Origin: Gammaproteobacteria bacterium
GTDB taxonomy: Bacteria > Pseudomonadota > Gammaproteobacteria > Eutrophobiales > Eutrophobiaceae
NCBI GenBank assembly: GCA_041556555.1
Contig: JBFFIE010000006.1
Span: forward strand, 5,452 to 69,451
Direction of reading: 5' to 3'
DNA length: 64,000 nt
This document shows positions 18,532 to 35,353 of this stretch, one piece after another. A program made the position numbers and the translations under genes. The notes under the pieces were generated by a model that saw only the letters and a program-made list of their open reading frames with translations, did no database searches and was not told the DNA's origin. How positions within the stretch are numbered: position 1 is the first letter of the stretch; each line of letters begins with the position of its first letter.

Positions 18532-20175
18532 ATGAATAAATATATAAAAATCAATAGCTTGCTATTGCTATTGTTGATCTCATCCTGTTCGCTGATAGAA
18601 CCCAAACCGTTTGAACCCTCGCCCGGCCATATCGAGGATCAGCCGGCCCCGCCCGGCGAAATCCCGGAACTGGTCGAGGAAGTCCCCCCGGCCCTGCCTG
18701 AACCATCGCCGCCTGTAGAGCTGGAGAAATACACGGTTGTGGTGAACGAAGTGCCTGTCAAGGAGCTGCTGTTTGCCCTCGCCCGCGACTCAAAGGTCAA
18801 TGTCGATATCGATCCCGGGATCAGTGGTGTAGTGACCCTGAACGCTGTAGACCAGACCTTCCCGCAGATACTTGATCGGATCAGTCAGCAGGTGAATCTG
18901 CGTTATGAATTCCAGGGCGTCAACCTCTTGGTGAAACCCGACAAGCCCTACCTCAAGGCTTACAAGATTGGCTACATCAATATGAGCCGGGAGACGACCA
19001 GTGATGTTGCCATCGCAACTCAGATTTCAACGACCGGTGGAGGATTTCAGGCCGGTGGGGGTACGACCGGTGGTGGCGCCGGGGGGGGAGATAATAATTC
19101 CACCACAGCGATAAAGAATACCTCGAATAACTTGTTTTGGGGAAACCTGGTCAATAACGTCCAGGCCATTCTGGAGCAATCAACCGGAAGTGCCGGTGGT
19201 GAGGCATCCGCCAATGTTGAGATTTCCAACAGCGTCATCCCCAATCCCGAAACCGGTATACTGACTGTGCGTGCAACCCACCGCCAGCATGCCGAGGTCC
19301 AGAGGTATATCGATGCCGCCATGGAAAGCGCACATCGCCAGGTATTGATCCAGGCGACGATTCTGGAAGTGCTCCTGACCGATGATTACCAGGCAGGCGT
19401 CGACTGGAGTTTCCTGGATGACACAGGCATTAGTGTGATTTCAACTACGGCAGGGGGTCCATTGACCGGTGAAGTTGCTTCATTTGTACTCGAATATTTC
19501 GATGCAGGTGTTGATGGTGAAGACACCGTTGACGCAACCTTGACCCTGCTTGAGGAATTCGGCGATATAAATGTCCTCTCCAGTCCCCAGATCATGGCCC
19601 TGAATAACCAGACCGCTATCCTCAAAGTGGTTGAGAATGATGTCTTTTTTACGATCGAGTCTGATACCACTCAGTCACAAACCAGTGCAGTCACCACTTT
19701 TACAACGACCATCAACACGGTTCCAGTGGGTATCGTGATGTCGGTAACGCCGCAGATAAATGACAATGACAGTATCATGCTCAACATCAGGCCGACCATT
19801 TCCAGGATTGTGCGTAGGGTAAGTGATCCCAATCCCTCTTTGACTACTGTGCAGAACTTAATCCCCGTAATTAATGTTCGTGAAATGGAGTCGCTGTTAA
19901 GATTGAGCAATGGACAGGTCGCCGTACTTGGTGGCCTGATTGAAAATCAGGAAACCGACAGGGTAAACAGTATTCCAGGCTTTTCCAGGCTCCCGCTTAT
20001 TGGCGAGGCCTTTAAAACAACCGTCAAGGAATATCAGAAATCCGAACTTATCATCTTTCTGAGACCAGTGATTGTTAATAACCCGACCGTGGATTCAGAT
20101 CTAGATATATTCAAGCCGTACCTCGATAGCCGGCGCCAGTCTTCCGGGTCTGAATCAGGAGCTAGTTCCCGGTGA
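18532..20175 (+). CDS. Lipoprotein secretin, MshL-like (type II/IV secretin family)
   Basis: ATG at 18532 with a GGAGG upstream. Lipobox LISSC. The N-domain carries a Gly-rich insert. The C-terminal secretin domain includes the motifs LSSPQIMALNNQTA and IPGFSRLPLIGEAF. Confidence 0.8.
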   Translation: MNKYIKINSLLLLLLISSCSLIEPKPFEPSPGHIEDQPAPPGEIPELVEEVPPALPEPSPPVELEKYTVVVNEVPVKELLFALARDSKVNVDIDPGISGVVTLNAVDQTFPQILDRISQQVNLRYEFQGVNLLVKPDKPYLKAYKIGYINMSRETTSDVAIATQISTTGGGFQAGGGTTGGGAGGGDNNSTTAIKNTSNNLFWGNLVNNVQAILEQSTGSAGGEASANVEISNSVIPNPETGILTVRATHRQHAEVQRYIDAAMESAHRQVLIQATILEVLLTDDYQAGVDWSFLDDTGISVISTTAGGPLTGEVASFVLEYFDAGVDGEDTVDATLTLLEEFGDINVLSSPQIMALNNQTAILKVVENDVFFTIESDTTQSQTSAVTTFTTTINTVPVGIVMSVTPQINDNDSIMLNIRPTISRIVRRVSDPNPSLTTVQNLIPVINVREMESLLRLSNGQVAVLGGLIENQETDRVNSIPGFSRLPLIGEAFKTTVKEYQKSELIIFLRPVIVNNPTVDSDLDIFKPYLDSRRQSSGSESGASSR

Positions 20176-21842
20176 GTCTCTTAATGGATGCCTTGAAAAA
20201 GGCGGAACGGGAGAAAAAAGAAGCAGCCAAACGTTTAAAGGAGTCGCAGGAAAGGTCCGGTATGGATCTCACCCTGGAAGAAGCGACACCCCGACCTGAA
20301 GCAGAGACAGAGGCAGAAGACAGCACGAAGAGTCAACAGCCGGAAATAACCGCTGATCAGCCAGAACAACAAGAGGAATCTGCCGGTGATCTTTCTCTTT
20401 CACCGATCGAAGACGAGATTGATACCGAGGCACCAACCCAGAAGATTGACCTTTCGAAAATGAAGGACCCCGGTACGTCCGGACTTTCACTTGAAGACAA
20501 AAATGATTTGACTCTTGATCAACCGGATCTGGTGGAGTCGGTTGAGGACGAGGAAACTGACGAGGAAACTGGTCCCGAAGCACCTGTCTTTGCTATCAAT
20601 TCACTTTCAACGGAAGAGGATTATATCTCCCCGCTGGAAGATTCCGGCCTGCATGAATTACCGGAACAAACCCTTGAAGATAGCGGCATCTTTACCCGCT
20701 CACTCGATGAAGGCAAGACTCTGCAGTCAGCACTTTCAGCAGAAGAGCTGGCCAGGGAGATGGGCGATGACCCAAATGCGCCCTTGCCGGTAGCCGCGCA
20801 AACTGTGTTTAATGCCTCTGCCGGTCAAAGCAGCAAGCGACAATTTATGGAATGGTTTTTATTTGTGGCCTGTTTTGCAGTTTTGATCATTGCTGGCAGT
20901 ATTTTTTACTATCTGAAAACAACACCTGAAATCTCGCCTCCGATCCGCCCGCAAATGGCAGAGACCGAGACTGCTACAGTCGAACAGATTATAGAACAGG
21001 CGCAAGTATCTTCAGATGTATCCGGTGAATTTACTAGTACCGAGACAGGACAGGAAATAGTGCTGGATGATTCCGCAGCACAGACAGCCAGTATTGGGAT
21101 ACCTGAAAAACCAGACGCCATAGAGGCTGCTGATAAGGAAACCATTGCCATGCGACAACCTTTGCCAGAGCACAAACAAGGACAGGAAAATATTTTACCG
21201 AACGAAATCAGGGTTGAACCGAGGGTGTTGCAAATAAGTCGCAGCCGTGCTGTCCGCGAGAGTGATTTACTGGTGCATGATGCTTACGCCGACTATAAAG
21301 CCGGAAATTTTGACTCTGCGGCAGCAGCCTACCAGAAAGTACTGATTACCCATCCTGAAAACCGCGATGCACTCCTTGGCCTGGCTGCCATAGCGCAGAA
21401 CAGGGGTAACCAGCAGCAGGCAAGTCAATACTACCTGCGTGTTCTCAAGAATTATCCTTCTGATGTGATTGCCAAGGCTGCTTTGCTTGCATCAACCAAT
21501 AGCAAGGAATCGGCCGCCGAAAATGAAAGCTTGTTAAAATCAATGATCAGCGATTCACCGGACACGGCTGATTTACATTTTATCCTTGGCAACGTATTTG
21601 CCAGTACTTCCCGCTGGAACGATGCGCAACAATCCTTCTTTGAAGCATTCAGGCTGGATAATGAAAATGCAAACTATGCTTATAATCTTGCAGTCAGCCT
21701 GGATCATCTCGGCAAGACGCAGGCTGCCTTGCAATATTACCGTCTGGCAATGGAGTTGGCCGAATCATCTTCAATAACACTGAACACCAACGTCCTTGCC
21801 TCCAGAATTGCTGCGCTCTCTGATTTTTCGCAGGATCAATAA
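20172..21842 (+). CDS. TPR-repeat membrane protein, MshN-like, with a long acidic cytoplasmic N-terminal region
   Basis: GTG start that overlaps the secretin stop (GTGA). The first 220 aa or so are D/E-rich. One TM helix follows, then C-terminal TPR repeats. Confidence 0.6.
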   Translation: MSLLMDALKKAEREKKEAAKRLKESQERSGMDLTLEEATPRPEAETEAEDSTKSQQPEITADQPEQQEESAGDLSLSPIEDEIDTEAPTQKIDLSKMKDPGTSGLSLEDKNDLTLDQPDLVESVEDEETDEETGPEAPVFAINSLSTEEDYISPLEDSGLHELPEQTLEDSGIFTRSLDEGKTLQSALSAEELAREMGDDPNAPLPVAAQTVFNASAGQSSKRQFMEWFLFVACFAVLIIAGSIFYYLKTTPEISPPIRPQMAETETATVEQIIEQAQVSSDVSGEFTSTETGQEIVLDDSAAQTASIGIPEKPDAIEAADKETIAMRQPLPEHKQGQENILPNEIRVEPRVLQISRSRAVRESDLLVHDAYADYKAGNFDSAAAAYQKVLITHPENRDALLGLAAIAQNRGNQQQASQYYLRVLKNYPSDVIAKAALLASTNSKESAAENESLLKSMISDSPDTADLHFILGNVFASTSRWNDAQQSFFEAFRLDNENANYAYNLAVSLDHLGKTQAALQYYRLAMELAESSSITLNTNVLASRIAALSDFSQDQ

Positions 21843-21844
21843 CA

Positions 21845-23560
21845 ATGGCGAAATCAAATAAGAAACATCTACGTCTGGGTGAAATACTGGTACAGCAAGG
21901 TGTTACCACCCCGGATCAGATCGAGATAGCATTAACCGAGCAAAAGAAAAGCAAGGAAAAGCTGGGCAAGATACTGGTGCGCCTCGGCTTTGCAACAGAA
22001 GCCATCATTCGTGATGTTATCGGCGGTGTCATTGGCCAGGAAAGTGTCAACCTTGATTATGCCGTTCCCGACAGCGAGGCTGTGAAACTGATCCCGAAAA
22101 ACCTCGCCAGACGATTGCATGTCCTGCCCCTTACCTACGACAACACAGCAAAGACACTGACGGTAGCCATGACGGATACCTTCAACGTCGTTGTGCTGGA
22201 CCAGATTAGCGTCCAGGTAGGCCGTGAGATTGAACTGGTTCCTGTGCTCGCCGGCGAGGCCGAAATTGAAAAGGCCATCGACCAGTTTTACGGATTTGAA
22301 TTATCGGTTGATGGCATCCTGAATGAAATTGAAACCGGTGAAATCGACTACCAGAGCCTTGATTCGGAAACGGACGAATACAGTCAGCCGGTAGTAAGAT
22401 TGGTTAATGCATTGTTATCTGATGCGGTAAAGCGTGGGGCATCAGATATTCACTTTGAACCGGAAGAAGGATTCCTGCGTTTCCGTTATCGTATTGATGG
22501 CGTACTGCGACAGATACGTAGTATCCACAAGAACTACTGGTCTGCCATTGCAGTCCGCCTGAAAGTGATGTCGGGCATGGATATTGCTGAAACCCGCGCA
22601 CCACAGGATGGTCGAATTTCTCTTTCCCTCTCCGGCCGTATTGTCGATTTTCGCGTGTCAACCTTGCCGACAGTGCACGGTGAAAATATTGTCCTCCGGG
22701 TACTGGACCGGCAAAAAGGCATTGTCGCACTGGACAAATTGGGGCTTAAGGATGATGCACTGAATACTCTGAAGATCATGGTCGGCCGACCGGAAGGCAT
22801 CATCCTCGTCACCGGGCCCACGGGCAGTGGTAAAACCACAACGCTCTATTCCATCCTCAATTACCTGAATGAGGAAAACGTCAACATCATGACCCTGGAA
22901 GACCCGGTAGAATATCCGACCAGCATGATCCGCCAGACTTCGGCTAGCGAAACTTCGCGCCTGGATTTTGCCAGTGGTATCCGTTCCATGATGCGTCAGG
23001 ACCCCGACATTATCCTGGTCGGTGAGATTCGTGATGAGGACACGGCAAGTATGGCCCTGCGCGCCGCCATGACCGGTCACCAGGTGTTTTCCACCCTGCA
23101 CACCAATTCGGCCCTTGGTGCCATTCCCCGATTGCTGGATATCGGTGTCCAGGCCGATATCCTCGCCGGTAATATCATTGGTGTGCTCGCCCAGCGCCTG
23201 GTCAGGAAATTATGTGATGCCTGCAAGGAATCCTACCAGATGAGTGACCTGGAAAGGACACTTCTGAACCTGAAATCCACAGACAGGCAGCAGGATATTT
23301 TCCGGGCCAAGGGCTGCCAGCAGTGTGATGGTCAGGGTTACCGTGGTCGGTTGGCTATACTGGAAATACTGCACTTTGATGCAGATATGGATGAACTCAT
23401 TGCCCGGCGAGGCACCCAGCGAGAACTCATGCGCGCGGCCTTGTCCAAGGGTTTCAAGACACTGGCTGATTCCGGCTCTGACCGGGTCCTGGATGGCTCA
23501 ACATCACTTGAAGAAGTTTCCCGTGTAATTGACCTGACTGGACGTATAACACACAAGTAA
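21845..23560 (+). CDS. GspE/PilB-family type IV pilus assembly ATPase with an N-terminal MshEN (c-di-GMP-binding) motif pair, MshE-like
   Basis: Two tandem 24-aa motifs are present: RLGEILVQQGV...LTEQ and KLGKILVRLGF.... Walker A (GPTGSGKTTT), Asp box, His box and a tetracysteine motif are also present. Confidence 0.85.
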   Translation: MAKSNKKHLRLGEILVQQGVTTPDQIEIALTEQKKSKEKLGKILVRLGFATEAIIRDVIGGVIGQESVNLDYAVPDSEAVKLIPKNLARRLHVLPLTYDNTAKTLTVAMTDTFNVVVLDQISVQVGREIELVPVLAGEAEIEKAIDQFYGFELSVDGILNEIETGEIDYQSLDSETDEYSQPVVRLVNALLSDAVKRGASDIHFEPEEGFLRFRYRIDGVLRQIRSIHKNYWSAIAVRLKVMSGMDIAETRAPQDGRISLSLSGRIVDFRVSTLPTVHGENIVLRVLDRQKGIVALDKLGLKDDALNTLKIMVGRPEGIILVTGPTGSGKTTTLYSILNYLNEENVNIMTLEDPVEYPTSMIRQTSASETSRLDFASGIRSMMRQDPDIILVGEIRDEDTASMALRAAMTGHQVFSTLHTNSALGAIPRLLDIGVQADILAGNIIGVLAQRLVRKLCDACKESYQMSDLERTLLNLKSTDRQQDIFRAKGCQQCDGQGYRGRLAILEILHFDADMDELIARRGTQRELMRAALSKGFKTLADSGSDRVLDGSTSLEEVSRVIDLTGRITHK

Positions 23561-23563
23561 CAA

Positions 23564-24769
23564 ATGGAAGCATTTCAATATAAAGCAGTTGATGATCGGG
23601 GCCGGATAACCGTCGGCAAGATCGACGCCGTCAATATTGCAGATCTGGAGACGCGCCTCGACAGGATGGGTCTTGACCTGGTCAATTATAAAGACCTTGG
23701 GCCGACTGGACCAAAAATTACCGGCGTTGGTGTTTCGCGTCGTGACCTCATCACATTTTGTTTCCATCTTGAGCAAACCGGTCGTGCCGGCGTGCCGATT
23801 CTGGAGAGCCTCGAAGACCTGCGTGACAGTAGTGATAACCCCAGGCTGCGCGAAGTCATTGCAGCGATGATTGATTCCATCGAGGGTGGGCAAACACTAT
23901 CCCAGGCAATGCGTAATTACCCTGCGGTCTTCGACAGCATATTTTGCAACCTGGTCAGAGCGGGTGAACAGTCGGGTGAAATTGCCCAGGTATTCTATCA
24001 GCTGGGCGAGAACCTGAAATGGCAGGACGAGCAAGCAGCCCAGACCAAGAAACTCCTCATCTATCCGGCATTCGTCGGTACAGTTGTCATAGCCGTTGTT
24101 TTCTTCCTGATGGTCTACCTGGTGCCGGAATTGCTCCGCTTTGTAAAAACCATGGGCCAAGAGCTGCCCATGCACACCAAGATTCTGATCGTGGTTTCCA
24201 ATGCCTTTGTCCAGTACTGGTATCTGTTTGTCCTGATCCCGGTACTGGTGGTTGGCGGATTGATGATTGCGATAAGGGTGAACGAAACTGCAAGGTACCA
24301 ATATGATGCCTTCAAACTAAAAATACCGATTATTGGCCCGATACTTCGCAAAATCATCCTGACTCGCTTGACCAGCTTTTTTGCCATGATGTATGCATCT
24401 GGCATTACCATCATCGAGTGCATTCGTACCGGTGAACAGATAGTAGGTAACAAGGTAATTGAGCAGGCAATGCACCAGGTTGGTCAGCACATTGCCGACG
24501 GCGCAACGCTGAGTACCAGCTTTGAAAGAACAGAACTGTTTCCACCACTGGTGTTAAGAATGATACGTGTTGGCGAGAATACCGGAGCCCTTGAGGAATC
24601 ATTGATCAATATCAGCTACTTTTACACCCGCGATATCAAGGAATCGATTGAAAAATTGCAATCCATGATTGAGCCTACGATGACGGTTGTCCTTGGTGCA
24701 ATTATTGGCTGGGTCATGTTATCTGTCCTTGGACCTATTTATGATCTCATCACTAAAGTCAAAATTTGA
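23564..24769 (+). CDS. GspF/PilC-family inner-membrane platform protein, MshG-like
   Basis: 401 aa. Two GspF repeats and three TM segments are present. Confidence 0.85.
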   Translation: MEAFQYKAVDDRGRITVGKIDAVNIADLETRLDRMGLDLVNYKDLGPTGPKITGVGVSRRDLITFCFHLEQTGRAGVPILESLEDLRDSSDNPRLREVIAAMIDSIEGGQTLSQAMRNYPAVFDSIFCNLVRAGEQSGEIAQVFYQLGENLKWQDEQAAQTKKLLIYPAFVGTVVIAVVFFLMVYLVPELLRFVKTMGQELPMHTKILIVVSNAFVQYWYLFVLIPVLVVGGLMIAIRVNETARYQYDAFKLKIPIIGPILRKIILTRLTSFFAMMYASGITIIECIRTGEQIVGNKVIEQAMHQVGQHIADGATLSTSFERTELFPPLVLRMIRVGENTGALEESLINISYFYTRDIKESIEKLQSMIEPTMTVVLGAIIGWVMLSVLGPIYDLITKVKI

Positions 24770-26351
24770 TACGGGCGACCGCAGGGCAATCCTGCTCAGT
24801 TCAACCAAGCTTTTTGTTTACCTCTGGACAGACGGCAAGCTTGGTCGGACCTATATGTTTGACGTAACCGATCAGGGCCGGGCATTTTTTGACAATTACA
24901 TTAAGGAATCCGAGCTTCTGGAAACCTATTTCGTGGTTGATATTGTCGAGGAGGAATATCGCCAAGAAACGATACCTCATGTATTTGGTGGCGATCGCCG
25001 GGCGGTCATAAAGCGCAAAAAGGAGCGACTGTTTCGAGACACACCCTATTTTCATGCTGAGATACAGGGTCGGGTTGAAGAGGGCAGACGGGATGACCGG
25101 GTCCTGTTTACAGCATTAACCAACCAGGACATTATCCAGCCCTGGATTGATATTCTTCTGGAAAACAAGGTTCCGCTTGCCGGGATTTATTCCATTCCGC
25201 AGATTACCTCGTTATTACTCGACAAGCTGCCCGAGCCCTCGGAACACATGCTGATAGTCAGCATGCACAGCATTACAGGCCTCAGGCAGACATTTTTTCA
25301 CAAAAAGGAACTTAAAATCAGCCGACTGGTTGATCTGCCGCGCTACGGGACATCGCCCTATGCACCGATCATCCGCGAGGAGGTTGATGTCATTACCCGG
25401 TATCTTAACAGCTTGCGCCTCATTGACAGCGAGAAGCCATACGAGGTTTATTTTCTGGCTGACAACAAACTGCTGAGCGAGATCAAAAGCGAGTTGGATG
25501 AGTCTGCTTCGGTTAACTATCACTTTGTAAATCTGAATACCTTTGGCAGAGAGTGCGGACTTGAAATTGAAACAGCCAATCCGTTCAGTGAAAAACTGTT
25601 TATTTATCATCTGCTGAAAGAGAGGCCCGGTAATTACTACGCCCAGAAAAACGAAACGCATTATTATCGTATGTCACGCATCAGGGGCGCGATGTATGTC
25701 ACCAGCGTCTGCATGGTTCTCGCCAGCCTAATCTGGGGCAGTATTAATTTCACAATAGGTCTGAGTTACAGAAAACAGGCAGAATTGTCCCAGAAACAAT
25801 ACCAGTATTACAGTGAGCGGCTGAAAGAGGCACGCAAAGAGCTTGCTCCGAGTCCGGTCAGCCCCTATGACCTTAAAACACTGGTGGAAATGGCAGACAC
25901 ACTGAAAAAATACAAGACAGACCCTGCCGATATCTTCCAGGTCATCAGTCGTGGGCTGGCCCGGTTTCCACAGATTGAACTGACCAATATCACCTGGAAT
26001 TCATCCAGTAAACCTGCAAGCCAGGAAAACACCGTTGCCACCGGAGATCTCGGACGTGGTTTGGCAGGTTATAGCACGCTTGAAGTTAATAGCTCGGATT
26101 ACAAGTATTTCCAGAATATTTATCTCGATGGTTATCTAGCGTCCTTCGATGGCAACTATCGCAAGGGCATAGCCACGATAAACAATTTTGTTGAATCACT
26201 AAGAGGCATTGATGCGGTTGAGGATGTAGCTGTGATCAAGCTGCCATTAGACACCGGCTCAGATAATCCCCTGAGCGGTGATACCAATAATGAATCTCTG
26301 GAAGCTAATTTTTCAGTCAGGCTGGTAATGGGAGTCATGCCAAATGGATAG
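24741..26351 (+). CDS. PilM/PilN-type fusion assembly protein (MshI-like). Cytoplasmic actin-like N-domain, one TM helix, periplasmic coiled-coil domain
   Basis: ATG at 24741 overlaps the platform gene by 29 nt. About 330 aa are cytoplasmic. A TM helix (MYVTSVCMVLASLIWGSINF) is followed by a PilN-like periplasmic part. Confidence 0.5.
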   Translation: MISSLKSKFDTGDRRAILLSSTKLFVYLWTDGKLGRTYMFDVTDQGRAFFDNYIKESELLETYFVVDIVEEEYRQETIPHVFGGDRRAVIKRKKERLFRDTPYFHAEIQGRVEEGRRDDRVLFTALTNQDIIQPWIDILLENKVPLAGIYSIPQITSLLLDKLPEPSEHMLIVSMHSITGLRQTFFHKKELKISRLVDLPRYGTSPYAPIIREEVDVITRYLNSLRLIDSEKPYEVYFLADNKLLSEIKSELDESASVNYHFVNLNTFGRECGLEIETANPFSEKLFIYHLLKERPGNYYAQKNETHYYRMSRIRGAMYVTSVCMVLASLIWGSINFTIGLSYRKQAELSQKQYQYYSERLKEARKELAPSPVSPYDLKTLVEMADTLKKYKTDPADIFQVISRGLARFPQIELTNITWNSSSKPASQENTVATGDLGRGLAGYSTLEVNSSDYKYFQNIYLDGYLASFDGNYRKGIATINNFVESLRGIDAVEDVAVIKLPLDTGSDNPLSGDTNNESLEANFSVRLVMGVMPNG

Positions 26352-26961
26352 GGGCATGGATGTTTCGGTTCTCAAGGGCGCAGCTATTGTGTTTCTCATT
26401 AGTCTTTTGTTCAGTGGCGGCCTCGTCTGGAGCGGGTGGTATTTCAAGGATGAAATGCTGAATGCCTACAACAGGGCGAAAGCCCAACAAAAAAGTGTTG
26501 CAAGCAGCTATGTTTCCATTGATGAGGAGAAAAGACTGGTCAGGGAATATCTGCCAGTATTCAAGAATCTCCATACGTTTGGTGTATTTGGTCAGGAACA
26601 TAGACTTAATTGGCTGGAAACACTGCGCAGTACGGGTGAAAAGCTGAAACTCCCGGCATTGCGCTACGAAATTGATTCACAAGATATCTATGTTCCTGAT
26701 TACACGGTCAATAGTGGAACCTTCAAAATATACGCCAGCCCGATGATATTGAATGTTGAACTGGTTCACGAAATTGATTTACTTGATCTGCTGGATAACC
26801 TTGATCGGAAGGCACAGGGGATTTATAACCTTAAATCATGTGAACTGATCCGGTCTCCAAAGGATGTTTCCCGGGAAAAATTAGATTCATATGTAAATGC
26901 AGATTGCAAGCTGATGTGGTTTAACATCAAGAAATCTGACGGTAGAACGATAGATATCTAG
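26344..26961 (+). CDS. PilO-like (MshJ-like) bitopic inner-membrane protein
   Basis: 205 aa with an N-terminal TM helix, then a coiled coil, then a periplasmic domain. It overlaps the previous gene by 8 nt (ATGGATAG). Confidence 0.45.
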   Translation: MDRGMDVSVLKGAAIVFLISLLFSGGLVWSGWYFKDEMLNAYNRAKAQQKSVASSYVSIDEEKRLVREYLPVFKNLHTFGVFGQEHRLNWLETLRSTGEKLKLPALRYEIDSQDIYVPDYTVNSGTFKIYASPMILNVELVHEIDLLDLLDNLDRKAQGIYNLKSCELIRSPKDVSREKLDSYVNADCKLMWFNIKKSDGRTIDI

Positions 26962-26964
26962 ATA

Positions 26965-27438
26965 ATGAAAAAAGGCAAACACATCATTATATTCCTGGCA
27001 GGTAGCCTTTTTGTTACCCTGCTTCCGGCCAGAGATTTGTCTTCTCAGGATAACATCGGTCGCCTGTTCATGACACCGGAAGAGAGGAGAACGCTGGATC
27101 TATTACGGAATCAGGAAGATCGCTCGACTATTACCGTTCCAAGTCTTGCCATTGAAGATGATCCTGATGAGGTATTGGATGAACAAATAACCGGTATAAC
27201 GGTTGACGGAATTGTTTACAGGAAAAACGGCAAGAGCACAGCCTGGGTCAATGATGGAAATACCTACGAAGGAGACCTTTCTACCCAGTATCTTGACATC
27301 AACCCGGAGCATATCAGCCCCGGTGGCGTAAAGATAAAAGTCAAGAATAACGATAAATCCAGATTAATCAGGATGGAAACCGGGCAAACCTATGATCCTG
27401 TAAAAGATGAAGTTGTTGACCCGGTAAAGTACAAATAA
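26965..27438 (+). CDS. PilP-like (MshK-like) periplasmic protein with a signal peptide
   Basis: 157 aa with a signal peptide. Its position and size match the PilP/MshK slot. Confidence 0.4.
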   Translation: MKKGKHIIIFLAGSLFVTLLPARDLSSQDNIGRLFMTPEERRTLDLLRNQEDRSTITVPSLAIEDDPDEVLDEQITGITVDGIVYRKNGKSTAWVNDGNTYEGDLSTQYLDINPEHISPGGVKIKVKNNDKSRLIRMETGQTYDPVKDEVVDPVKYK

Positions 27439-27483
27439 CTCCCTCCCGCTTAATCACACCTGAATATTGTGGGATAGTTCAAT

Positions 27484-29178
27484 ATGAAAAAACCTGTGCC
27501 ACAAAAACAAAAGGGTGCCGTATTACTTGCTACTACACTTATCTTGATACTGGGCTCTGCCTGGTTATTGATTATCAACCTTAACAACAATGCCAGGCGT
27601 TTTGCGAATTACGAGGAGAGTATGCAAGTACTCAGAGAGGCAAAACAGGCCCTGATTGCCTATGCGGTTAACTATTACGAATCCAATCCTGGCCATTTCG
27701 GTTTTTTACCTTGCCCGGATTCAAGTACCACTGGTGAGGAGGGTAACCAGGAAGCCCCCTGTGGGGCACGATATGTCAATGTCATGGGTAAGTTTCCCTG
27801 GCAAGCGCTGGATCTTCCCCCACTGAAGGATGCTTATGGTCAATGCCTGTGGTATGCCGTCTCCGGTGCGGTCAAGGGAGGTAGTAGCCGCTCTGAAATG
27901 TTGAATGAAGATACCCATGGCACATTCCAGATTATGGATCCGGATGGCGTCACAGTGGTTGCCGGGGCCACACCCAGGGAAAGGCCGGTGGCCGTTATTT
28001 TCGCCCCGGGACGTTCCATTAATAACCAGACACGGGCCGATAGCAACGGCGCTATCTGTGAAGGGAATGAAGCGGTGAATTATGTGGCGAGTAATTATCT
28101 TGATGCCGAGGTACCGTCAAACCCCCTGTTGGGTATCAGGAATTATGTCGTAAGTTCCACAGCGGATACGGTAGACCAGTTCATAATGACAGGCGATCCG
28201 GAGAGTGAGGATTTCAATGATCTGATGCTTTACATCACGATTGATGAGATCTTTGATGCCATCAAGCAGCGTAACGATTTTGCAGATAAGCTTTACGACG
28301 AGGCCGCCTTGAATAATCTTACCTATCGGGTAGCAGAATGTATTGCCGGCTATGGCCAGTACCATGCCGATAAACACGTTGACGATGGTGATGGGGATTA
28401 CAATCGCAGCCTGCCTTGGCCTGCGCGTTTCGATTTTGCGGATGATGACAACCGTTACCGGTATGAAGCAGAATATTATGATATTGATAATAGTTCACTG
28501 CTCATGGGGAGAGTCCCCATAGATATCAGCAACAGCAACGATGAGATATATAATGGCTGCAGTTCACCGCATACCTGTTTACCCCCGTCTGACAGACTCA
28601 TAGACACCAGTACGTCGCCATATTCGGGGTTTTGCAGGGCGTTCTGGCTGGTGTATTCGGATAACCCGATTAGTCCATCTGCCACAAATGAGTTGATTGA
28701 CTTATGGAATAACTGGAAAGACCATTTATTCTATATTGTGTCGGAGGAATATCAGCCACAGCCCATGAGCGCAGATACAGATGCCTGCCTCGACACTACT
28801 CAATCACCGGATGAAATCGAACCTAGATGTATTACAATAAATGTGCCGTTCACTTATCCGCCGAATGACCAGTCGTTGAATATGACAATGGTGGCTGCAA
28901 TAGTTATTTTCTCTAATGAGACATTACCATCGTTATCACAGTCAAGATCGGCACCACCGATCGATACCGATGACAAGCAGAATCCTGCCTCGAATCTGGA
29001 AGACCGGAATATCATCCCCTATACGACTTCTGATGTAGGGATAGATACAGAGTTTTCCAGTAATCAAGTCAGTGCTACTTTTAATGATGTTCTTTATTGC
29101 ATCAATGAAGATACGGATGAAACGTCGATTGGCGGACCACCGCCGTTCAAGGCGGGCAGATGCCCGGTGAATCCATAA
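27484..29178 (+). CDS. Large PilX_N-type pilus-associated protein (pseudopilin-like N-terminal helix without the canonical G-F-T-L-I-E)
   Basis: The N-terminus QKGAVLLATTLILILGSAWLL resembles the PilX N-domain. It shares an LPCPD...C...G-x-F/L-PW-x-x-L-x-x-P block with the downstream pilin. The large C-terminal region is acidic. Confidence 0.5.
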   Translation: MKKPVPQKQKGAVLLATTLILILGSAWLLIINLNNNARRFANYEESMQVLREAKQALIAYAVNYYESNPGHFGFLPCPDSSTTGEEGNQEAPCGARYVNVMGKFPWQALDLPPLKDAYGQCLWYAVSGAVKGGSSRSEMLNEDTHGTFQIMDPDGVTVVAGATPRERPVAVIFAPGRSINNQTRADSNGAICEGNEAVNYVASNYLDAEVPSNPLLGIRNYVVSSTADTVDQFIMTGDPESEDFNDLMLYITIDEIFDAIKQRNDFADKLYDEAALNNLTYRVAECIAGYGQYHADKHVDDGDGDYNRSLPWPARFDFADDDNRYRYEAEYYDIDNSSLLMGRVPIDISNSNDEIYNGCSSPHTCLPPSDRLIDTSTSPYSGFCRAFWLVYSDNPISPSATNELIDLWNNWKDHLFYIVSEEYQPQPMSADTDACLDTTQSPDEIEPRCITINVPFTYPPNDQSLNMTMVAAIVIFSNETLPSLSQSRSAPPIDTDDKQNPASNLEDRNIIPYTTSDVGIDTEFSSNQVSATFNDVLYCINEDTDETSIGGPPPFKAGRCPVNP

Positions 29179-29181: not shown

Positions 29182-29946
29182 ATGAACCAAAAAAACAAAA
29201 GCCTTGCTAGCCACGGTTTCACCCTGATAGAACTCGCTATCGTGTTGTTCATTGTCAGCCTGTTACTGGGCGGCTTGCTCATGCCCTATGCGACCAGTGT
29301 CGAACAACGGGAGCGTGAGGACACAGCCGAGATCCTGGAGGACATCAAGGAAGCTCTGTATGGACACGCATTGGTTAACGGTTACCTGCCTTGCCCGGAT
29401 TGCGAGACAGGCCAGGCCTGTGCAGCCGGTACACCGGATGACGGGATAGAAGACAGAAATGGCAACCTGTGTTCAGTAACGCTTTCTGCTCAAAATACCT
29501 ACACAGGGAATCTGCCCTGGGCCACGCTCGGCGTTCCCCAGTTTGATGCCTGGGAAAAACCATTTACCTACAGCGTGACCGATACTTTTTCAAATGACGC
29601 GGTTCCTTTTACCCTGACGGATACCGGGACGATAGACATACTCGACCAGGACGGCGCCGCCACGGCCCGGATAGCGCAGAGCATCCCCGCTATCGTAGTT
29701 TCCCACGGCAAGGATCATTATGTGCCCGCGCAAAGCGCAGACCAGGTAGAAAACTACGAGCGCGATGCGAACATATATGGCACAACCAATAGTATCCTCA
29801 CAGCATATTCAGGTGATAATGCCGGTGAATTTGTCTTTACCGATTACAGGCTCTTGGGGGGTAATATTGATTACGACGATATGATGATCTGGATTTCCCC
29901 GTTTGTCATCAAAAACCGGATGATTGCCGCAGGTCAACTGCCCTGA
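29182..29946 (+). CDS. Type IV (prepilin-type) minor pilin, Cys-rich
   Basis: The prepilin cleavage/methylation motif reads HG|FTLIELAIVLFIV. Five Cys residues fall within about 40 aa (LPCPDCETGQACAAG...NLC). It is the last gene of the operon. Confidence 0.75.
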   Translation: MNQKNKSLASHGFTLIELAIVLFIVSLLLGGLLMPYATSVEQREREDTAEILEDIKEALYGHALVNGYLPCPDCETGQACAAGTPDDGIEDRNGNLCSVTLSAQNTYTGNLPWATLGVPQFDAWEKPFTYSVTDTFSNDAVPFTLTDTGTIDILDQDGAATARIAQSIPAIVVSHGKDHYVPAQSADQVENYERDANIYGTTNSILTAYSGDNAGEFVFTDYRLLGGNIDYDDMMIWISPFVIKNRMIAAGQLP

Positions 29947-31610
29947 TTCAGAGACCGTGACTTCTCCAGCCTGAAGCATACCTTGCCATCCGAATTATGT
30001 TTCAGTTTCAACTCATAACCCAGTGTCCCGGCCTGCTTGGCTGCCTGTAACAGGCCAATACCCAGACCATTGTCTGATTTAACCGGTTCCTGAAAAAGCC
30101 TTTCGACGAGTTCTTTGGGTATGGCCTGGCCGTTATCCTCTACTTCAATAGAAATTCCTTCATCGTTTCCCTGCAGGGTAACGGTAATATCGATTTCCGG
30201 ATCCAGCTTGCGTTTGTTTATAGCATTTTCAACGAGGTTTTCACTGACACTATCAAATAAATCAAAAGGGATACGAAGGTCACTGTTGATATCATCTTTG
30301 AACTGAATATCAAACGACCTGTAATGATTCATGAACTCATTCCACCAGTCTCTGAGATAGATTTCGTCCGCGATCAGTTGCTCGGGTGATTGTAACTTGT
30401 TGACTGCTTGTTCCAGGCGCTGTATGAAATAAGGAAACTGCTTTTTCAGTATCAACAATGACCTGGCATCTCTTTCGTCTGTATCAGCTTGCAAAATTGT
30501 TACCATGGAGTGCATGGACTGCAAGAGGTTCTTGATGTCATGAGTAATCCTGGCACCGGTCTCAAATATGGCCTGAAGATGTGCCTGCTTGGCAAGTTCA
30601 ATCTCGTTCAACTTGGCCTGATAGAAATATTCAATCAGCCGGATTAATAATTTGCAATGTATCAGCACGGCCCCGCCTACTCGTATATGCGTGTAAATCT
30701 CAATGGGCTTATTACTAATATCCAGGCTAATCCTGTGGCTGGATTTTTTCCCCTTTAGCTGGTTATTCCAGTATGTACCGGATATCCAGTCCAGTGTAAG
30801 CAGCTTTTCTATGGCCACATCCAGGTATTCCTCAGCAGAATCATGTTGATCCTTGAGCGCGGAAAGTTCATCCAGCCAGGTTTCAAACGGGGTTCCGATA
30901 CTGAGCAGTGATTTGGTCCAGATCTGGGAAAATCCACTGAGCCCGATATTTGCAGAAAGCAACCAGCTGATAAAAAGCAGGAATAGGCCAATTGCCAGGA
31001 GAATCCGGATCAGCGCTGTGACGTAATCGGTGCCAGCAGAATACATGATGACAAGACTGCCGAGCGCAATCAAACTCACCAGTAATGAAGTAGTGATAGC
31101 ATATATGATGTCAACTGGAACCGGTGATCGTTTTGCAGGTTTGAATAACGGCATTAAAACCGGGACCAGTAGCAAGAGGTAGTTCAGTGATGATATGCCC
31201 TTGGGCAGGGTGGCAATCGTGAACATCATGGGCAGGCAGATAAGAAGTATCTCAGAGAACAGAAATACCATGACGATATAGTAAACAAAACGCTCAGCAC
31301 GGCTGTTGACAACGCGTCCTCCAACGATGCCCAGTATCAGTACCAGCCAGACAAAGACAAGCCACCAGTTGATAAAATAGACAAACAGGAAACTCAGCAG
31401 AATAAGTAACAGACTGTTATACCAGCTATAACGTTCTTCAGTCCTTTCTATGGGTTGCCAGAGGAGAAAAAAACCCAGGTGAATGAGAAACAGCGCCCGT
31501 GAGAGCAGACTGCCGAAATCAATCCAGATCGCAAGATGCAGACTTGCCAGCATTGCTGCCAATAACAGGTAATCGCGACGATCACTGACGAATCTGAAGA
31601 GACTGGTCAT
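29934..31610 (-). CDS. Multi-TM sensor histidine kinase, PilS-like (about 8 predicted TM helices + DHp + HATPase_c)
   Basis: The N-terminal 250 aa or so are polytopic. The H-box reads ARITHDIKNLL, followed by N and G boxes (NGLGIGL). It is convergent with the pilus operon and overlaps it by 13 nt. Confidence 0.75.
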   Translation of the reverse strand: MTSLFRFVSDRRDYLLLAAMLASLHLAIWIDFGSLLSRALFLIHLGFFLLWQPIERTEERYSWYNSLLLILLSFLFVYFINWWLVFVWLVLILGIVGGRVVNSRAERFVYYIVMVFLFSEILLICLPMMFTIATLPKGISSLNYLLLLVPVLMPLFKPAKRSPVPVDIIYAITTSLLVSLIALGSLVIMYSAGTDYVTALIRILLAIGLFLLFISWLLSANIGLSGFSQIWTKSLLSIGTPFETWLDELSALKDQHDSAEEYLDVAIEKLLTLDWISGTYWNNQLKGKKSSHRISLDISNKPIEIYTHIRVGGAVLIHCKLLIRLIEYFYQAKLNEIELAKQAHLQAIFETGARITHDIKNLLQSMHSMVTILQADTDERDARSLLILKKQFPYFIQRLEQAVNKLQSPEQLIADEIYLRDWWNEFMNHYRSFDIQFKDDINSDLRIPFDLFDSVSENLVENAINKRKLDPEIDITVTLQGNDEGISIEVEDNGQAIPKELVERLFQEPVKSDNGLGIGLLQAAKQAGTLGYELKLKHNSDGKVCFRLEKSRSLNQGS

Positions 31611-31667: not shown

Positions 31668-32453
31668 TTGTCGGGATCACTAATGAAATATCCTGTCGGG
31701 GCCATTGCCCGTTATAGTTTGCTGGAAGCAGTAAGAAGTCATATTTTCCTGCTCGTGGTACCGGGCGTGATAATTCTTTTCGGCATCTCGCAATTCGTTG
31801 GTGAACTGGCCGTCACTGAATCCAGGGAAATTCAGGCTGCTATAACCGCTTATATAATTCGAGTTCTTGCCGTAATTATTACATGCCTCTTTATTGTTTT
31901 ATCCTGTTTGCGGGAATTTAATGAAAAGACAGTCGATATAATTTTTGCATTACCGGTTCCACGATATGTTTATTACCTGGGCAAGCTGTTCGGTTTCTCA
32001 GGCCTTGTTTTTATAGTAGCCGTGTTATTTTCGTTACCACTTTTTCTTTATGCAGATATGATGCCAGTAGCTTACTGGTCAATATCGCTGGTCTGCGAGT
32101 TATTTATTATGACGAGCCTCAGCCTGCTGTTTTTACTGACTCTTGGAAATGCCACATTGACCCTGAGCCTGGTCTTTGCGTTCTATGTTTTGTCACGAAC
32201 CATAAATACAATCCAGTTAATAGCAGCCAGCCCTGTTATTGAAGCAACATCTTTTTCGCAACATTTAATAAGCGGTATCATTGATGTGATCGCCTTTCTA
32301 TTGCCGGATTTTTCCCGCTTTGCCCAAACGGAATGGTTAATGACAGGTTCAGTCGATATCAACGAAATAAGTTTTGTATTTTTGCAGACGACGGTCTATG
32401 TGGTGTTATTATCAGCCGCAGCACTGTTTGACCTCTATCGAAAGGAATTCTAG
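31668..32453 (+). CDS. ABC-2 family transporter permease
   Basis: 261 aa with about 6 TM helices. The hydrophobicity profile is ABC-2 type. Confidence 0.6.
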   Translation: MSGSLMKYPVGAIARYSLLEAVRSHIFLLVVPGVIILFGISQFVGELAVTESREIQAAITAYIIRVLAVIITCLFIVLSCLREFNEKTVDIIFALPVPRYVYYLGKLFGFSGLVFIVAVLFSLPLFLYADMMPVAYWSISLVCELFIMTSLSLLFLLTLGNATLTLSLVFAFYVLSRTINTIQLIAASPVIEATSFSQHLISGIIDVIAFLLPDFSRFAQTEWLMTGSVDINEISFVFLQTTVYVVLLSAAALFDLYRKEF

Positions 32454-33196
32454 TGTTTCATAGATTCAGTCGCTCGGGTTTATTTACCCATTCTACCCAA
32501 CGGCCCGTTTCCAGCGTTCCCGGGACAGTGTCACTGGTCTTGTTGCTTGCCCTGGGTCTGCAGTTCGTCTTGCATGGTTATTATGTTGAGAGGGATGTGG
32601 TCGGTAAATCGCTTACGCTGGCACCATCCGAACACCATGCCAGCATGCTGGGCCTGGGGGACAATATCGCGATCGCCAAGATACTGATGCTTTGGTTGCA
32701 GGCCTTTGATAATCAACCGGGCCTGAGCATACCGCTTGCTAGACTTGACTACGGGAGGGTAACAGGCTGGCTGCAACTGATACTTGATCTGGATCCACGG
32801 GGTCAATACCCGTTATTTGCAGCGGCACGCATCTATGCCGGGATTCAGGACGAGGACAAACAACGCCAGATGCTTGGATTTGTCTACCGGAATTTTTTCA
32901 AGGATCCAAACCATCGATGGCCGGCCCTGGCGCACGCCGTGTACATAGCCAAACACCGCCTGAATGATATGCCATTAGCCTTAAAATATGCCGAGGCAAT
33001 GGCAGATAATGTAACCGCAAAAGATGTACCCTTCTGGGTCAAGCAGATGCACATTTATGTGCTCGAAGATATGGGTGAACTGGAAGCGGCAAGGATTCTG
33101 CTGGGCGGGCTCATCGAGAGTGGTACCATCAGGGATCCAAATGAGCTCGAGTTCCTGCGTTCACGGCTCAGGAATCTGGAGGAAAAGACTGAATAG
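32453..33196 (+). CDS. Hypothetical membrane-anchored protein (the PilG-slot gene in a pilGHI-like arrangement)
   Basis: GTG start that overlaps the permease stop (TAGTG). One N-terminal TM helix is present. I recognise no domain. Confidence 0.4.
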   Translation: MFHRFSRSGLFTHSTQRPVSSVPGTVSLVLLLALGLQFVLHGYYVERDVVGKSLTLAPSEHHASMLGLGDNIAIAKILMLWLQAFDNQPGLSIPLARLDYGRVTGWLQLILDLDPRGQYPLFAAARIYAGIQDEDKQRQMLGFVYRNFFKDPNHRWPALAHAVYIAKHRLNDMPLALKYAEAMADNVTAKDVPFWVKQMHIYVLEDMGELEAARILLGGLIESGTIRDPNELEFLRSRLRNLEEKTE

Positions 33197-33331
33197 GAGC
33201 GGGAATCGGGACCTGGCGATGTTCAATAAAAGTGTCGAGATTTCGACAAACTGATGACAGCTCGTCAGTTTTTCCCGTGTTCACCCAGATATTAAATTAT
33301 AAAAGTTAATAATTACAGATAGTTAGTGGTT

Positions 33332-33346
33332 TGGCATGGAAAATGC
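33332..33346 (+). promoter_or_regulatory. Sigma-54 (-24/-12) promoter of the major pilin gene
   Basis: The sequence is TGGCATGGAAAATGC. The GG and GC elements are at the consensus spacing (TGGCAC-N5-TTGC). It lies 38 nt upstream of the pilin ATG. Confidence 0.65.
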
Positions 33347-33383
33347 GAGATGACTGGCAGAGAAAACGCTGAGGTGTATTGAG

Positions 33384-34097
33384 ATGACGACAATGAAAAG
33401 ACAATCCGGTTTTACCCTGGTCGAAATTGCCATCGTACTGGTTATCGTTGGCCTGTTGCTCGGAGGCATACTGAAAGGCCAGGAATTGATCAACAGTGCC
33501 CGAGTCCGCAACCTGGCGGATCAGAACGCCGCGGTTCAGGCAGCCTATTATGGTTTCATCGACCGCTATCGGCAGATTCCCGGAGATTGGCCGGCAGCTG
33601 CGGCGACCACCGGTATCGGGGTGACTATCGTCAGCCCGACTTCAGCCAATGCCGGTAATGGTCGTATCGATGACGGTGACTGGGACGAAGCCTCCGGAGT
33701 CTGGGAACAGCTGGCCGGCGCCGGTTTTATCGCGGGTAACTACAGTGGTGGCGGTACTGCCGCGAACTACACTGACGGTACCCGTGCGCCAGTGAATGCA
33801 TTTAATGGTTCGGTATTACTTGGTCGCATGGACCAGTACCAGGACAATGGCACCGCCGTTGAGCGCCTGGCCTTTTCCTTCGGCAACCAGATCCCGGCTA
33901 AGATCCTGCGTGAGCTGGATGTGAAGCTGGATGATGGTCGGCCACTGACCGGTATTCTAAGGGCCTCGGGGACGGCCACCGGTGGTTGGGCCACCATGTT
34001 TACCTCTGTTGCTGCCTGTACTGCCGGTACGGCCCCGAATATAGAATGGGACGTGGCCACGGACTCACAGGATTGTGGCGCAGTCTCGCTCTATTAA
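33384..34097 (+). CDS. Type IVa major pilin candidate (prepilin with a C-terminal disulfide loop)
   Basis: The leader MTTMKRQSG|FTLVEIAIVLVIVGLL has the class III signal with Glu at +5. A C-terminal Cys pair (C...19 aa...C) forms the D-region. Its own sigma-54 promoter lies upstream and an intrinsic terminator downstream. Confidence 0.8.
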   Translation: MTTMKRQSGFTLVEIAIVLVIVGLLLGGILKGQELINSARVRNLADQNAAVQAAYYGFIDRYRQIPGDWPAAAATTGIGVTIVSPTSANAGNGRIDDGDWDEASGVWEQLAGAGFIAGNYSGGGTAANYTDGTRAPVNAFNGSVLLGRMDQYQDNGTAVERLAFSFGNQIPAKILRELDVKLDDGRPLTGILRASGTATGGWATMFTSVAACTAGTAPNIEWDVATDSQDCGAVSLY

Positions 34098-34124
34098 TCC
34101 TGTTTGATAAGCAAACATTAAAAA

Positions 34125-34150
34125 GGCCCGCACTAACGCGGGCTTTTTTC
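34125..34150 (+). terminator. Rho-independent terminator after the pilin gene
   Basis: GGCCCGC-actaa-GCGGGCC stem-loop followed by TTTTTT. Confidence 0.7.
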
Positions 34151-34176
34151 TTCAAAGTTGCTGAAAGATAGAATCG

Positions 34177-34896
34177 ATGACTATTCCTGTAGTTGAAATC
34201 AATGCTGTGTCCAAGTCCTATGGGCGTAAACAGGTCCTTTCAGATATCAGTCTTTCTATCTCTGAGGGTGAATACATTGGTCTCGTGGGTCTGAACGGTG
34301 CCGGCAAAACAACCCTGATTAAATGTCTGCTGGATTTCTGTGCCCTGGACAGTGGCCAAATCCGTATCTTCGGTCGTGAACATCGGGATACTGAATCCAG
34401 GAAATCGCTGGTTTTTTTGCCGGAGAAGTTTATTCCACCCTATTTCCTGAAGGGTAATGATTTTCTCAAATACATGGCAGCACTTTATCAAATTAATGTC
34501 GATAACGAATTAATTGATTCATTGTTACAAGTGATGGATCTGGATGCAGAGTCACTGGACCAGCCGGTCTACAAATATTCGAAAGGTATGTCACAGAAAC
34601 TGGGTTTAATAGCCAGCCTCATGACCGGGAGGCAGTTACTGGTTTACGACGAACCCATGAGTGGTCTGGATCCCAGAGCCAGGGCGCGTTTAAAAAAGCA
34701 TTTGCTATCACTCAAGTCTGCCGGGCAAACCCTGTTTTATTCTTCCCATTTGCTCGAAGACGTTAAAGCCATGTGCGATCGTCTTGTCATTCTGCATCGC
34801 GGTCAGGTCCGTTTTTTTGGCACACTGGATGAATGTATAAAATCATTTGTTGCAAACGATCTGGAAGAGGCCTACTTACATTGCATCGATCAGTGA
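34177..34896 (+). CDS. ABC transporter ATP-binding protein (ABC-2 / CcmA-like)
   Basis: Walker A (GLNGAGKTT), ABC signature (YSKGMSQKL) and Walker B (LLVYDEP) are present. Confidence 0.85.
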   Translation: MTIPVVEINAVSKSYGRKQVLSDISLSISEGEYIGLVGLNGAGKTTLIKCLLDFCALDSGQIRIFGREHRDTESRKSLVFLPEKFIPPYFLKGNDFLKYMAALYQINVDNELIDSLLQVMDLDAESLDQPVYKYSKGMSQKLGLIASLMTGRQLLVYDEPMSGLDPRARARLKKHLLSLKSAGQTLFYSSHLLEDVKAMCDRLVILHRGQVRFFGTLDECIKSFVANDLEEAYLHCIDQ

Positions 34897-34897: not shown

Positions 34898-35353
34898 CTA
34901 GCCGAGCAGATCTCTGAGGTAATCACTGGCGCGTGATTGAATCCCGGCGTATTTGCTTTCTCTCGGTCCGGCAACATTCAGTACCCTGATCCGGTTTGCC
35001 GACAACCAGTCGTGAAACACGGATCTATCCACCGGTTTATTCAGGTCTACCAGCAGGAATGGTCGTCCCAGCTCTTTTGCAATCAGGATGGTCCTTAATG
35101 TCCCTCCGGAAGTTTCACCTATGGTTAAAATCAACGTCCCGTCCGAGTCTCTGACATTCAATCTGGTCCGGGTGACGTAATCGGTCTCCCTCGTTTCAGT
35201 CAGTCTGTAGTGTGGCGGTATTGGCCCGTCCTCCGCCTTTCTTCCAGCGGGACACCAGCCGCCATGATCAATGCCAAGCTCAATTGCCACATCGATGGCA
35301 GCACGGTCAACACCTGATTGGCCACCCGATATGATTTTTCCGGGTCTGTACAT
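34898..35353 (-). CDS. Putative molybdenum-carrier / SLOG-LOG-like Rossmann protein
   Basis: The ISGGQSGVDRAA N-terminus is characteristic of the MoCo-carrier / YpsA-LOG superfamily. Confidence 0.45.
   Translation of the reverse strand: MYRPGKIISGGQSGVDRAAIDVAIELGIDHGGWCPAGRKAEDGPIPPHYRLTETRETDYVTRTRLNVRDSDGTLILTIGETSGGTLRTILIAKELGRPFLLVDLNKPVDRSVFHDWLSANRIRVLNVAGPRESKYAGIQSRASDYLRDLLG

Follow-up and report, generated by a model that had tools for sequence, protein, structure and literature searches.

The proteins PilG, PilH and PilI have been known since 1998 to be essential for pili in Myxococcus. In Myxococcus xanthus they are encoded in an operon comprising pilA (MXAN_5783), the accessory factor gene pilG, the ATP-binding protein gene pilH and the permease gene pilI, which is driven by the pilA promoter (PMC3546991, PMC3724824, PMC5544727). 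Mutants in pilG, pilH or pilI have no pili and no S-motility (PMC3724824, PMC5544727), the published view being that PilGHI is required to take pilin out of the inner membrane (PMC3724824), and the three genes have been called Myxococcus-specific (PMC6060248). Here, we analyzed a 64,000-nucleotide stretch of the gammaproteobacterial contig JBFFIE010000006.1 (the window), in which genes for an ATP-binding cassette (ABC) transporter stand on both sides of a pilin gene. A first-pass annotation had likened this locus to Myxococcus, where pilG, pilH and pilI follow pilA and are needed for pili. Our analysis makes it likely that the permease, hypothetical protein and ATPase of this locus are divergent PilI, PilG and PilH homologs that serve a mannose-sensitive hemagglutinin (MSHA)-type pilus as an ABC engine for pilin handling or assembly.

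The four open reading frames (ORFs) on which that annotation was built were all found in place, in the order permease, membrane-anchored hypothetical protein, pilin and ABC ATPase. Together with the signals between them, they are:

31668-32453 (likely start 31683), plus strand: PilI-like ABC-2 (type V) permease, by AlphaFold2 (AF2) fold and profile matches
32453-33196, plus strand: PilG-like accessory protein with an N-terminal transmembrane (TM) helix and a TPR-like all-helical domain, by AF2 model and hhalign
33233-33275, plus strand: two hairpins 3' of the PilG-like gene, the second with a U-run (terminator-like, weaker; -16.4 kcal/mol, z -2.95)
33332-33347, plus strand: sigma-54 (-24/-12) promoter TGGCATGGAAAATGCG, 52 nt upstream of the pilin start
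33384-34097, plus strand: probable major pilin, 237 aa, with the N_methyl motif G|FTLVE, its own promoter and terminator, and a GAGGTG ribosome-binding site
34120-34152, plus strand: intrinsic terminator or attenuator between pilin and ATPase genes (hairpin and U-run at 34120-34149; -18.2 kcal/mol, z -5.4)
34177-34896, plus strand: PilH-like ABC ATPase, 239 aa, nucleotide-binding domain (NBD) only (ABC_tran E 2e-22)

As references for PilGHI, we used metagenome contigs found with a back-translated N-terminus of a Myxococcus-type PilA. In at least 25 of the 80 metagenome loci returned, a pilin gene is followed by three same-strand genes encoding a TM-anchored protein (290-320 aa), an ABC ATPase (~320 aa) and an ABC-2 permease (~255 aa), with a sigma-54 regulator upstream and PilD or PilM/N/O beyond. 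These loci were taken as PilGHI-type because their layout is the one published for pilA, accessory factor, ABC ATPase and ABC-2 permease (PMC3546991, PMC5544727). Three alignments were used in the comparisons: A1 for the family of the hypothetical protein, A2 for the permease family, and A3 for the PilG-like proteins of the PilGHI-type metagenome loci.

The first-pass annotation had suggested a remote-homology search for the hypothetical protein, and profile-profile alignment with hhalign links it to the PilG-like proteins: A1 matched A3 at 96.8% (E 2.3e-10) over 184 columns, which is the whole helical domain, while controls with a true TPR family gave 0.7% and 0.5%. The A2 profile matched PilI-like permeases with E-values from 1e-19 to 1e-9, compared with a marginal 1.5e-3 for NosY and 0.1 for PmtD. 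The ATPase is ~40% identical to PilH-like ATPases (BLASTP, E 1e-48), and phmmer gave ~150 bits against PilH-like proteins and 128 bits against NosF. When hidden Markov models (HMMs) of the reference proteins were run against all window ORFs, the PilG-like model found the hypothetical protein only (1.6e-9), the PilH-like model the ATPase only (2.8e-57) and the PilI-like model the permease only (3.1e-10). Since profile matches, TPR controls and reciprocal HMMs agree, the three window proteins are homologs of PilG-, PilH- and PilI-type proteins, so that the comparison with PilGHI goes beyond a likeness of layout for all three parts. Generic TPR likeness was considered as the source of the PilG match and rejected on the basis of the TPR controls; in addition, the PilG-like HMM misses the window's own TPR protein.

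To examine how far the arrangement extends, one genome per species was scanned for homologs of the hypothetical protein, and the best 80 loci of ~260 species were used for synteny, with the window proteins mapped onto each locus and the denominators being loci long enough to tell. The first-pass annotation had regarded the arrangement as unusual; this did not hold, as the genomes of ~260 species carry the family. The best 80 loci come nearly all from uncultured Gammaproteobacteria (Thiotrichaceae, Ectothiorhodospiraceae, Chromatiales, Thiogranum and Ca. Parabeggiatoa), and the closest genome among the species scanned is an uncultured gammaproteobacterial metagenome-assembled genome, L006, whose hypothetical protein is 94% identical. 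The permease gene lies immediately upstream of the hypothetical gene in 70 of 72 loci, a pilin gene lies within 3 kb downstream of it in 53 of 56, and the pilin gene is followed by the ATPase gene in 49 of 56. The four genes therefore co-occur in other genomes, a check that had been proposed at the outset, and the linkage between the module and the pilin gene is tight and persistent.

Close relatedness of the genomes as the sole source of this order was rejected. The downstream flanks vary by locus, with genes for a circularly permuted YpsA (cpYpsA) protein, a Na-H exchanger and a Ser-Thr kinase in some and a sigma-54 regulator or other genes elsewhere; the gene for an adjacent histidine kinase comes and goes; and insertion sequence (IS) elements interrupt the surroundings, while the unit persists. 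In locus L038, Mutator-family and DDE_3 transposase genes (3916-7884) lie directly upstream of the permease gene in place of the upstream pilus genes, and the four-gene unit is intact though split from the machine genes by IS elements. In the window, the cpYpsA gene of the SLOG family (34898-35353, minus strand) converges on the ATPase gene with a 1-nt gap, and it is kept in many, not all, related loci.

The permease was examined further by structure prediction. Pfam gave weak ABC-2 matches only (E about 1e-3, under the gathering score). The AlphaFold model, built with 24 homologs, has a pLDDT of 85.5 and shows, as a prediction, the type V ABC fold with a six-TM ABC-2 domain; its best structural match is NosY (TM-score 0.65-0.72), followed by PmtD and then by ABCG transporters and CcmB (probability 1.00 for all of these). 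Its start is likely the ATG at 31683 and not the TTG at 31668, because homologs are 256 aa long. Residues R77, E78 and K82 of a cytoplasmic loop are invariant, beta-proteobacterial A2 members included, a pattern consistent with docking of an NBD. The 64 kb window holds no other ABC ATPase or ABC-2 permease gene. The ATPase, judged by the motifs read in its translation (Walker A GLNGAGKT, signature YSKGM, Walker B LLVYDE with the catalytic E, and H-loop SSH), is a catalytically complete NBD.

The structural matches raise the question of whether the genes encode an unrelated housekeeping transporter of the NosY/NatB type, for copper or sodium efflux, that stands beside pilus genes by chance. The nearest solved structures are NosFY: NosDFY of Pseudomonas stutzeri (PDB 7O0Y and related) is the best structural relative of the window permease and ranks with the top matches of the ATPase (E 4e-36), and JGI labels permease homologs NosY-like or NatB-like. 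Against this, sequence similarity to NosY is marginal next to that of PilI-like permeases, and the accessory protein is PilG-like and not NosD-like: NosD is a beta-helix, whereas the window partner is predicted to be all-helical, TPR-like and membrane-anchored. No nos genes were seen among the window ORFs scanned, and the neighbors of the module are pilus genes. The linkage to pilin is retained in ~80 species despite changing flanks, and this co-occurrence effectively refutes the housekeeping explanation, which we hold to be highly improbable. The first-pass annotation had named clustering with an unrelated efflux family, together with co-occurrence with this pilin nowhere else, as grounds for abandoning the PilGHI comparison; the nearest solved relatives are indeed NosFY, yet linkage to pilin was found in dozens of species.

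Two of these structural relatives may nevertheless be informative about how PilI, PilG and PilH homologs could act on pilin. In NosDFY, a type V ABC engine works on a partner protein in the periplasm and pumps no solute. The second-best structural match of the permease belongs to PmtCD, the phenol-soluble-modulin exporter of Staphylococcus, an ABC-2 exporter thought to clear amphipathic helical peptides from the membrane, and it is possible that this activity parallels an action on the N-terminal helix of pilin. PmtCD differs from the window module in that it lacks both an accessory TPR protein and a pilus context, and the likeness in sequence is slight (E 0.1). By analogy, the mechanism of the module would be nearer to NosDFY, with its periplasmic partner, or to PmtCD, with its clearance of amphipathic helices, than to solute efflux.

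Type V ABC exporters also include exporters of polysaccharides and lipids, and the window ATPase has matches to ABCA and TagH and the permease to ABCG. These matches fit a reading in which the exported substrate is a surface polysaccharide or a glycan that modifies pilin, with an effect on the pilus that is only indirect, as proposed for XapD of Geobacter. In Geobacter sulfurreducens, GSU1501 (xapD) resembles the window in that an ABC ATPase gene near pilA has a surface-structure phenotype, being described as an ABC transporter for sugars on which electrode biofilms depend (PMC5585712), and pilGHI mutants of Myxococcus are negative for exopolysaccharide (EPS; PMC5544727). The EPS defect of these mutants has been explained by pilus loss (PMC3724824). 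Unlike the window module, GSU1501 is read as a polysaccharide exporter. There are no glycosyltransferase, Wzx/Wzy or sugar-nucleotide genes among the window ORFs scanned or in related loci, and the module follows the pilin gene and no polysaccharide locus. We therefore consider glycan export unlikely, and return to PilI, PilG and PilH homologs acting on pilin.

The module closes an MSH-type pilus cluster, whose features upstream of it are:

15556-17124, plus strand: sigma-54-dependent response regulator (Response_reg, Sigma54_activat, HTH_8), candidate activator of the pilin promoter in a PilR-like role
17124-24769, plus strand: MSH-type machine by Pfam and NCBIfam matches, comprising an AAA_22 MshM/ExeA-like ATPase, MshL secretin, TPR MshN-like protein, MshE and MshG/GspF-like platform
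24687-29178, plus strand: four conserved ORFs (554, 205, 157 and 564 aa) with no Pfam or NCBIfam matches, syntenic in related loci
29182-29946, plus strand: second prepilin-like gene, 254 aa, with the N_methyl motif G|FTLIE, probably a minor pilin
29934-31610, minus strand: polytopic sensor histidine kinase (HATPase_c), divergent from the permease gene, with a putative PilS-like role

The secretin exceeds the cut-off of the NCBIfam MshL equivalog TIGR02519 (264 bits; cut-off 250), and MshE carries a c-di-GMP-binding MshEN domain (MshEN E 5e-14; c-di-GMP motif E 1e-16). By its MshL-type secretin and its MshE with an MshEN domain, the predicted pilus system belongs to the MSH class. As in the MSHA systems of Vibrio and Shewanella, MshL, MshE with a c-di-GMP-binding N-terminus, an MshM-like ATPase, an MshN-like TPR protein and an MshG platform are present; gene order differs from those systems, and the window's alignment-complex proteins have no family match. 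No ABC transporter is known to us from the canonical MSHA locus (mshH to mshQ), and a literature search for an ABC transporter within MSHA-type loci returned nothing relevant.

Among the neighboring genes, the second prepilin-like gene is directly upstream of the module, and its position just before the kinase gene or the permease gene is conserved. The 564-aa protein (27484-29178) has a pilin-like hydrophobic N-terminus without E5; in other lineages, a protein of ~1050-1090 aa stands in its place (L003:3498-6650; L004:3459-6728). The best NCBIfam match of the response regulator is a PEP-CTERM-box regulator, below the cut-off. The same holds more widely: XrtA/PEP-CTERM proteins (PrsR, pepcterm_ATPase, PrsT and PrsK) are the best NCBIfam matches of three proteins encoded within 15556-21842, namely the sigma-54 regulator, the ATPase of the AAA_22 type and the TPR protein, and also of the kinase, all below the cut-offs, which suggests paralogy between pilus accessory genes and genes of exosortase systems. 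The remaining window ORFs scanned are housekeeping genes.

The locus can now be set beside that of M. xanthus. In common with PilG, PilH and PilI of this species (MXAN_5782/5781/5780), the window has a TM-anchored TPR-like factor, an ABC ATPase and an ABC-2 permease of ~255 aa beside the major pilin gene, together with a sigma-54/two-component type of control of pilin (PMC3546991), which in the window is a predicted one. Gene order differs, being I-G-pilin-H in the window and pilin-G-H-I in Myxococcus. The window ATPase (239 aa) consists of the NBD only, compared with ~320 aa for the Myxococcus type, and its accessory protein (247 aa) lacks the C-terminal 70-100 aa of the PilGHI-type proteins (290-320 aa). 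Identity to the PilGHI-type proteins is low, so that the permease and the accessory protein call for profile methods. The machine is of the MSH type (MshL/MshE/MshM/MshN) and not the type IVa pilus (T4aP) machine of Myxococcus with PilB/T/C/M/N/O/P/Q, and the hosts of the window family are Gamma- and Betaproteobacteria, unlike Myxococcus. Finally, in place of a single operon under the pilA promoter, the window has a sigma-54 promoter inside the module and two hairpins that resemble terminators, one after the PilG-like gene and one after the pilin gene. Of the module genes, only the ATPase gene could use the pilin promoter, via read-through. In the reference PilG-like proteins, the C-terminal extension (A3 columns ~250-330; e.g., L161:1650-1855) carries a conserved P-EP-GGRY...S...RLRV motif; a search of PDB profiles gave no support for this extension being a GspG pseudopilin domain.

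The hypothetical protein, which the first-pass annotation had called membrane-anchored, does have a single N-terminal TM helix in its AlphaFold model (pLDDT 84.7; residues 24-42), followed by ten helices in TPR-like pairs. Foldseek against the PDB found generic weak TPR matches only (E 0.03 or worse), and the solved structures that resemble it weakly are designed TPRs, LapB, PilW and YfgM. Because the Lys/Arg counts flanking the TM helix favor the N-in orientation in 98 of 120 homologs, the TPR-like helical domain is probably periplasmic. Sharply conserved in the family are the motifs ERPxxDVP (ahead of the TM helix), LWLQAFDNQPG, RRWP and YVLEDMGE. No Pfam or NCBIfam model scored above its cut-off for the hypothetical protein, a DUF2946 match (E 1e-3) being disregarded as below the cut-off, and none matched the reference PilG-like proteins. 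Its close, unannotated homologs number thousands, and clustering at 50% identity yields 688 clusters for the family among 1.84 billion representatives. It should be noted that the loci were chosen by similarity to this protein, which biases the identities, and a ranking of it as the most conserved protein of the cluster was not used. Its closest database relative, P0001, is 100% identical over the 247 aa and is 258 aa long, having a sense codon where the window has the TAG stop (33194-33196), which adds 11 residues. Upstream, the permease stop codon TAG (32451-32453) overlaps the GTG start of the hypothetical gene by one base (G), with GGAA 7-8 nt upstream. Translational coupling, which had been asserted outright, is plausible on these grounds.

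The pilin gene had been described as flanked by its own promoter and terminator, and both were identified, with the correction that the promoter is of the sigma-54 and not the sigma-70 type. A sigma-54 motif lies 41-137 nt 5' of the pilin gene in ~50 of 66 distinct related loci, and a pilin-ATPase hairpin with a T-run is kept in most related loci that have the motif. The gap from the pilin terminator to the ATPase start is only ~25 nt, which leaves no room for a promoter, so that the ATPase gene would depend on read-through, either of the pilin transcript or of one that starts farther upstream. The kinase gene is present in 46 of 59 loci and absent in 13, and it co-occurs with the sigma-54 promoter: loci without the kinase gene are also without a sigma-54 motif 5' of the pilin gene. 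Named loci with this pattern are L019, L051, L063, L077, L080 and L082-L084. In loci without the kinase gene, the second pilin, permease, hypothetical, pilin and ATPase genes are spaced 17-74 nt apart; this operon-like spacing indicates that the pilin gene is an integral part of the module and not a recent insertion.

Further features of the pilin region were observed in related loci. Tandem pilin copies (two or three) occur in L015, L026, L029, L035, L048, L061, L062, L071 and L081, which is consistent with a diversifying major pilin. In many related loci, a class III nucleotidyl cyclase gene (Pfam Guanylate_cyc) lies on the opposite strand between the PilG-like and pilin genes (L003:10789-12192 and L004:10762-12081, both minus strand, and about 20 others with a PilG-like/pilin gap of 1.5-2.0 kb); this gene, which the window does not have, may connect cyclic-nucleotide signaling with pilin control. 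An Rfam scan of 29-36 kb of the window found no RNA family.

Cultured members of the Oxalobacteraceae also carry the family, in Massilia, Pseudoduganella, Duganella, Janthinobacterium sp. HH01 and Rugamonas. Three Oxalobacteraceae loci were inspected, from Massilia, Janthinobacterium sp. HH01 and Duganella (L086:10001-12144, L088:9213-11359 and L089:9224-11354). They share with the metagenomic locus L087 the gene order pilin, permease, PilG-like and pilin; in the Oxalobacteraceae loci, an APH-family kinase gene comes next.

Several points weigh against PilI, PilG and PilH homologs acting together on pilin. No ABC ATPase gene is adjacent in the Massilia, Janthinobacterium and Duganella loci, nor in L087, and a PilG/PilI metagenome locus (L143, 3120-5528) has no PilH-like ATPase gene between or after these genes. 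Because of these loci, either the ATPase partnership is not universal or the partner is encoded elsewhere; the ATPase that the first-pass annotation had called matching is present at the window locus and missing from the Oxalobacteraceae loci. The pilin of L143 is probably the one closest to M. xanthus PilA. Three loci have no pilin and ATPase genes after the PilG-like gene, one of them (L031) having GlnE and IlvE there; we read these three as losses, which also argues against simple inheritance of the gene order. With two terminator-like hairpins between the genes, co-expression is only a possibility, and the probable periplasmic placement of the TPR-like domain has the positive-inside count as its sole basis. 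The main caveat is that the PilGHI-type reference loci are metagenomic and were identified by gene order, and are not authentic M. xanthus sequences.

The beta-proteobacterial loci, with a permease and a PilG-like protein and no local ATPase, also bear on another role for these two proteins, namely that they serve mainly as a sensor or scaffold for the adjacent kinase and report membrane pilin load, much as in transporter-kinase pairs of the Bce type, with ATP-driven transport secondary or absent. The divergent orientation of the polytopic kinase gene and the permease gene, and the co-occurrence of kinase and sigma-54 pilin promoter, would fit such a role. However, the module is kept in the 13 of 59 loci without the kinase, among them the Oxalobacteraceae loci, in which the ATPase is missing as well; all three ABC parts are encoded in the Myxococcus-like PilGHI-type loci; and the invariant R77, E78 and K82 of the permease may reflect NBD docking. 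Taken together, a primarily sensory function appears quite unlikely.

If the permease, hypothetical protein and ATPase act as PilI, PilG and PilH homologs, two permeases and two ATPases would assemble as a type V ABC engine, in which ATP hydrolysis would act on the inner-membrane pool of pilin by way of the membrane domain and of the TPR-like PilG partner, which is probably periplasmic. Such an engine may hold, fold, release or clear pilin for assembly by the MshE/MshG motor, and would not pump small solutes. In Myxococcus mutants of pilG, pilH or pilI, pilin is reported to be produced and processed without being assembled. The proposed action also agrees with the view in the literature that Myxococcus PilGHI takes pilin out of the inner membrane (PMC3724824). 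ATPase output could be coupled to pilin transcription by terminator read-through, powering the engine while pilin is made, and the PilS/PilR-like kinase and sigma-54 regulator may govern pilin. The export or quality-control function suggested in the first-pass annotation is likewise an inference.

PilGHI was known from Myxococcus; what is new is a PilGHI-type module in MSH-type pili, with a spread much wider than the literature states. The presence of a trimmed-down yet recognizable PilGHI in the MSH-type loci of hundreds of Gamma- and Betaproteobacteria makes it a general accessory of type IV filaments and not a curiosity. The PilG family, so far without a model in Pfam or NCBIfam, is now defined as TM-anchored and TPR-like, with sharply conserved motifs, and a conserved regulatory layout is flagged, consisting of a PilS/R-like kinase and regulator, sigma-54 promoter, pilin, attenuator and ATPase. 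The cultured Janthinobacterium, Duganella and Massilia are hosts that allow genetic tests. More speculatively, and as a possibility that we put forward tentatively, PilG/PilH/PilI may be an ancient, overlooked engine of type IV filaments common to T4aP and MSH-type pili, in which a motor and a periplasmic TPR-like adaptor would act directly on membrane pilin; this would be an unrecognized ATP-dependent step, carried out in the Oxalobacteraceae maybe without a dedicated ATPase.

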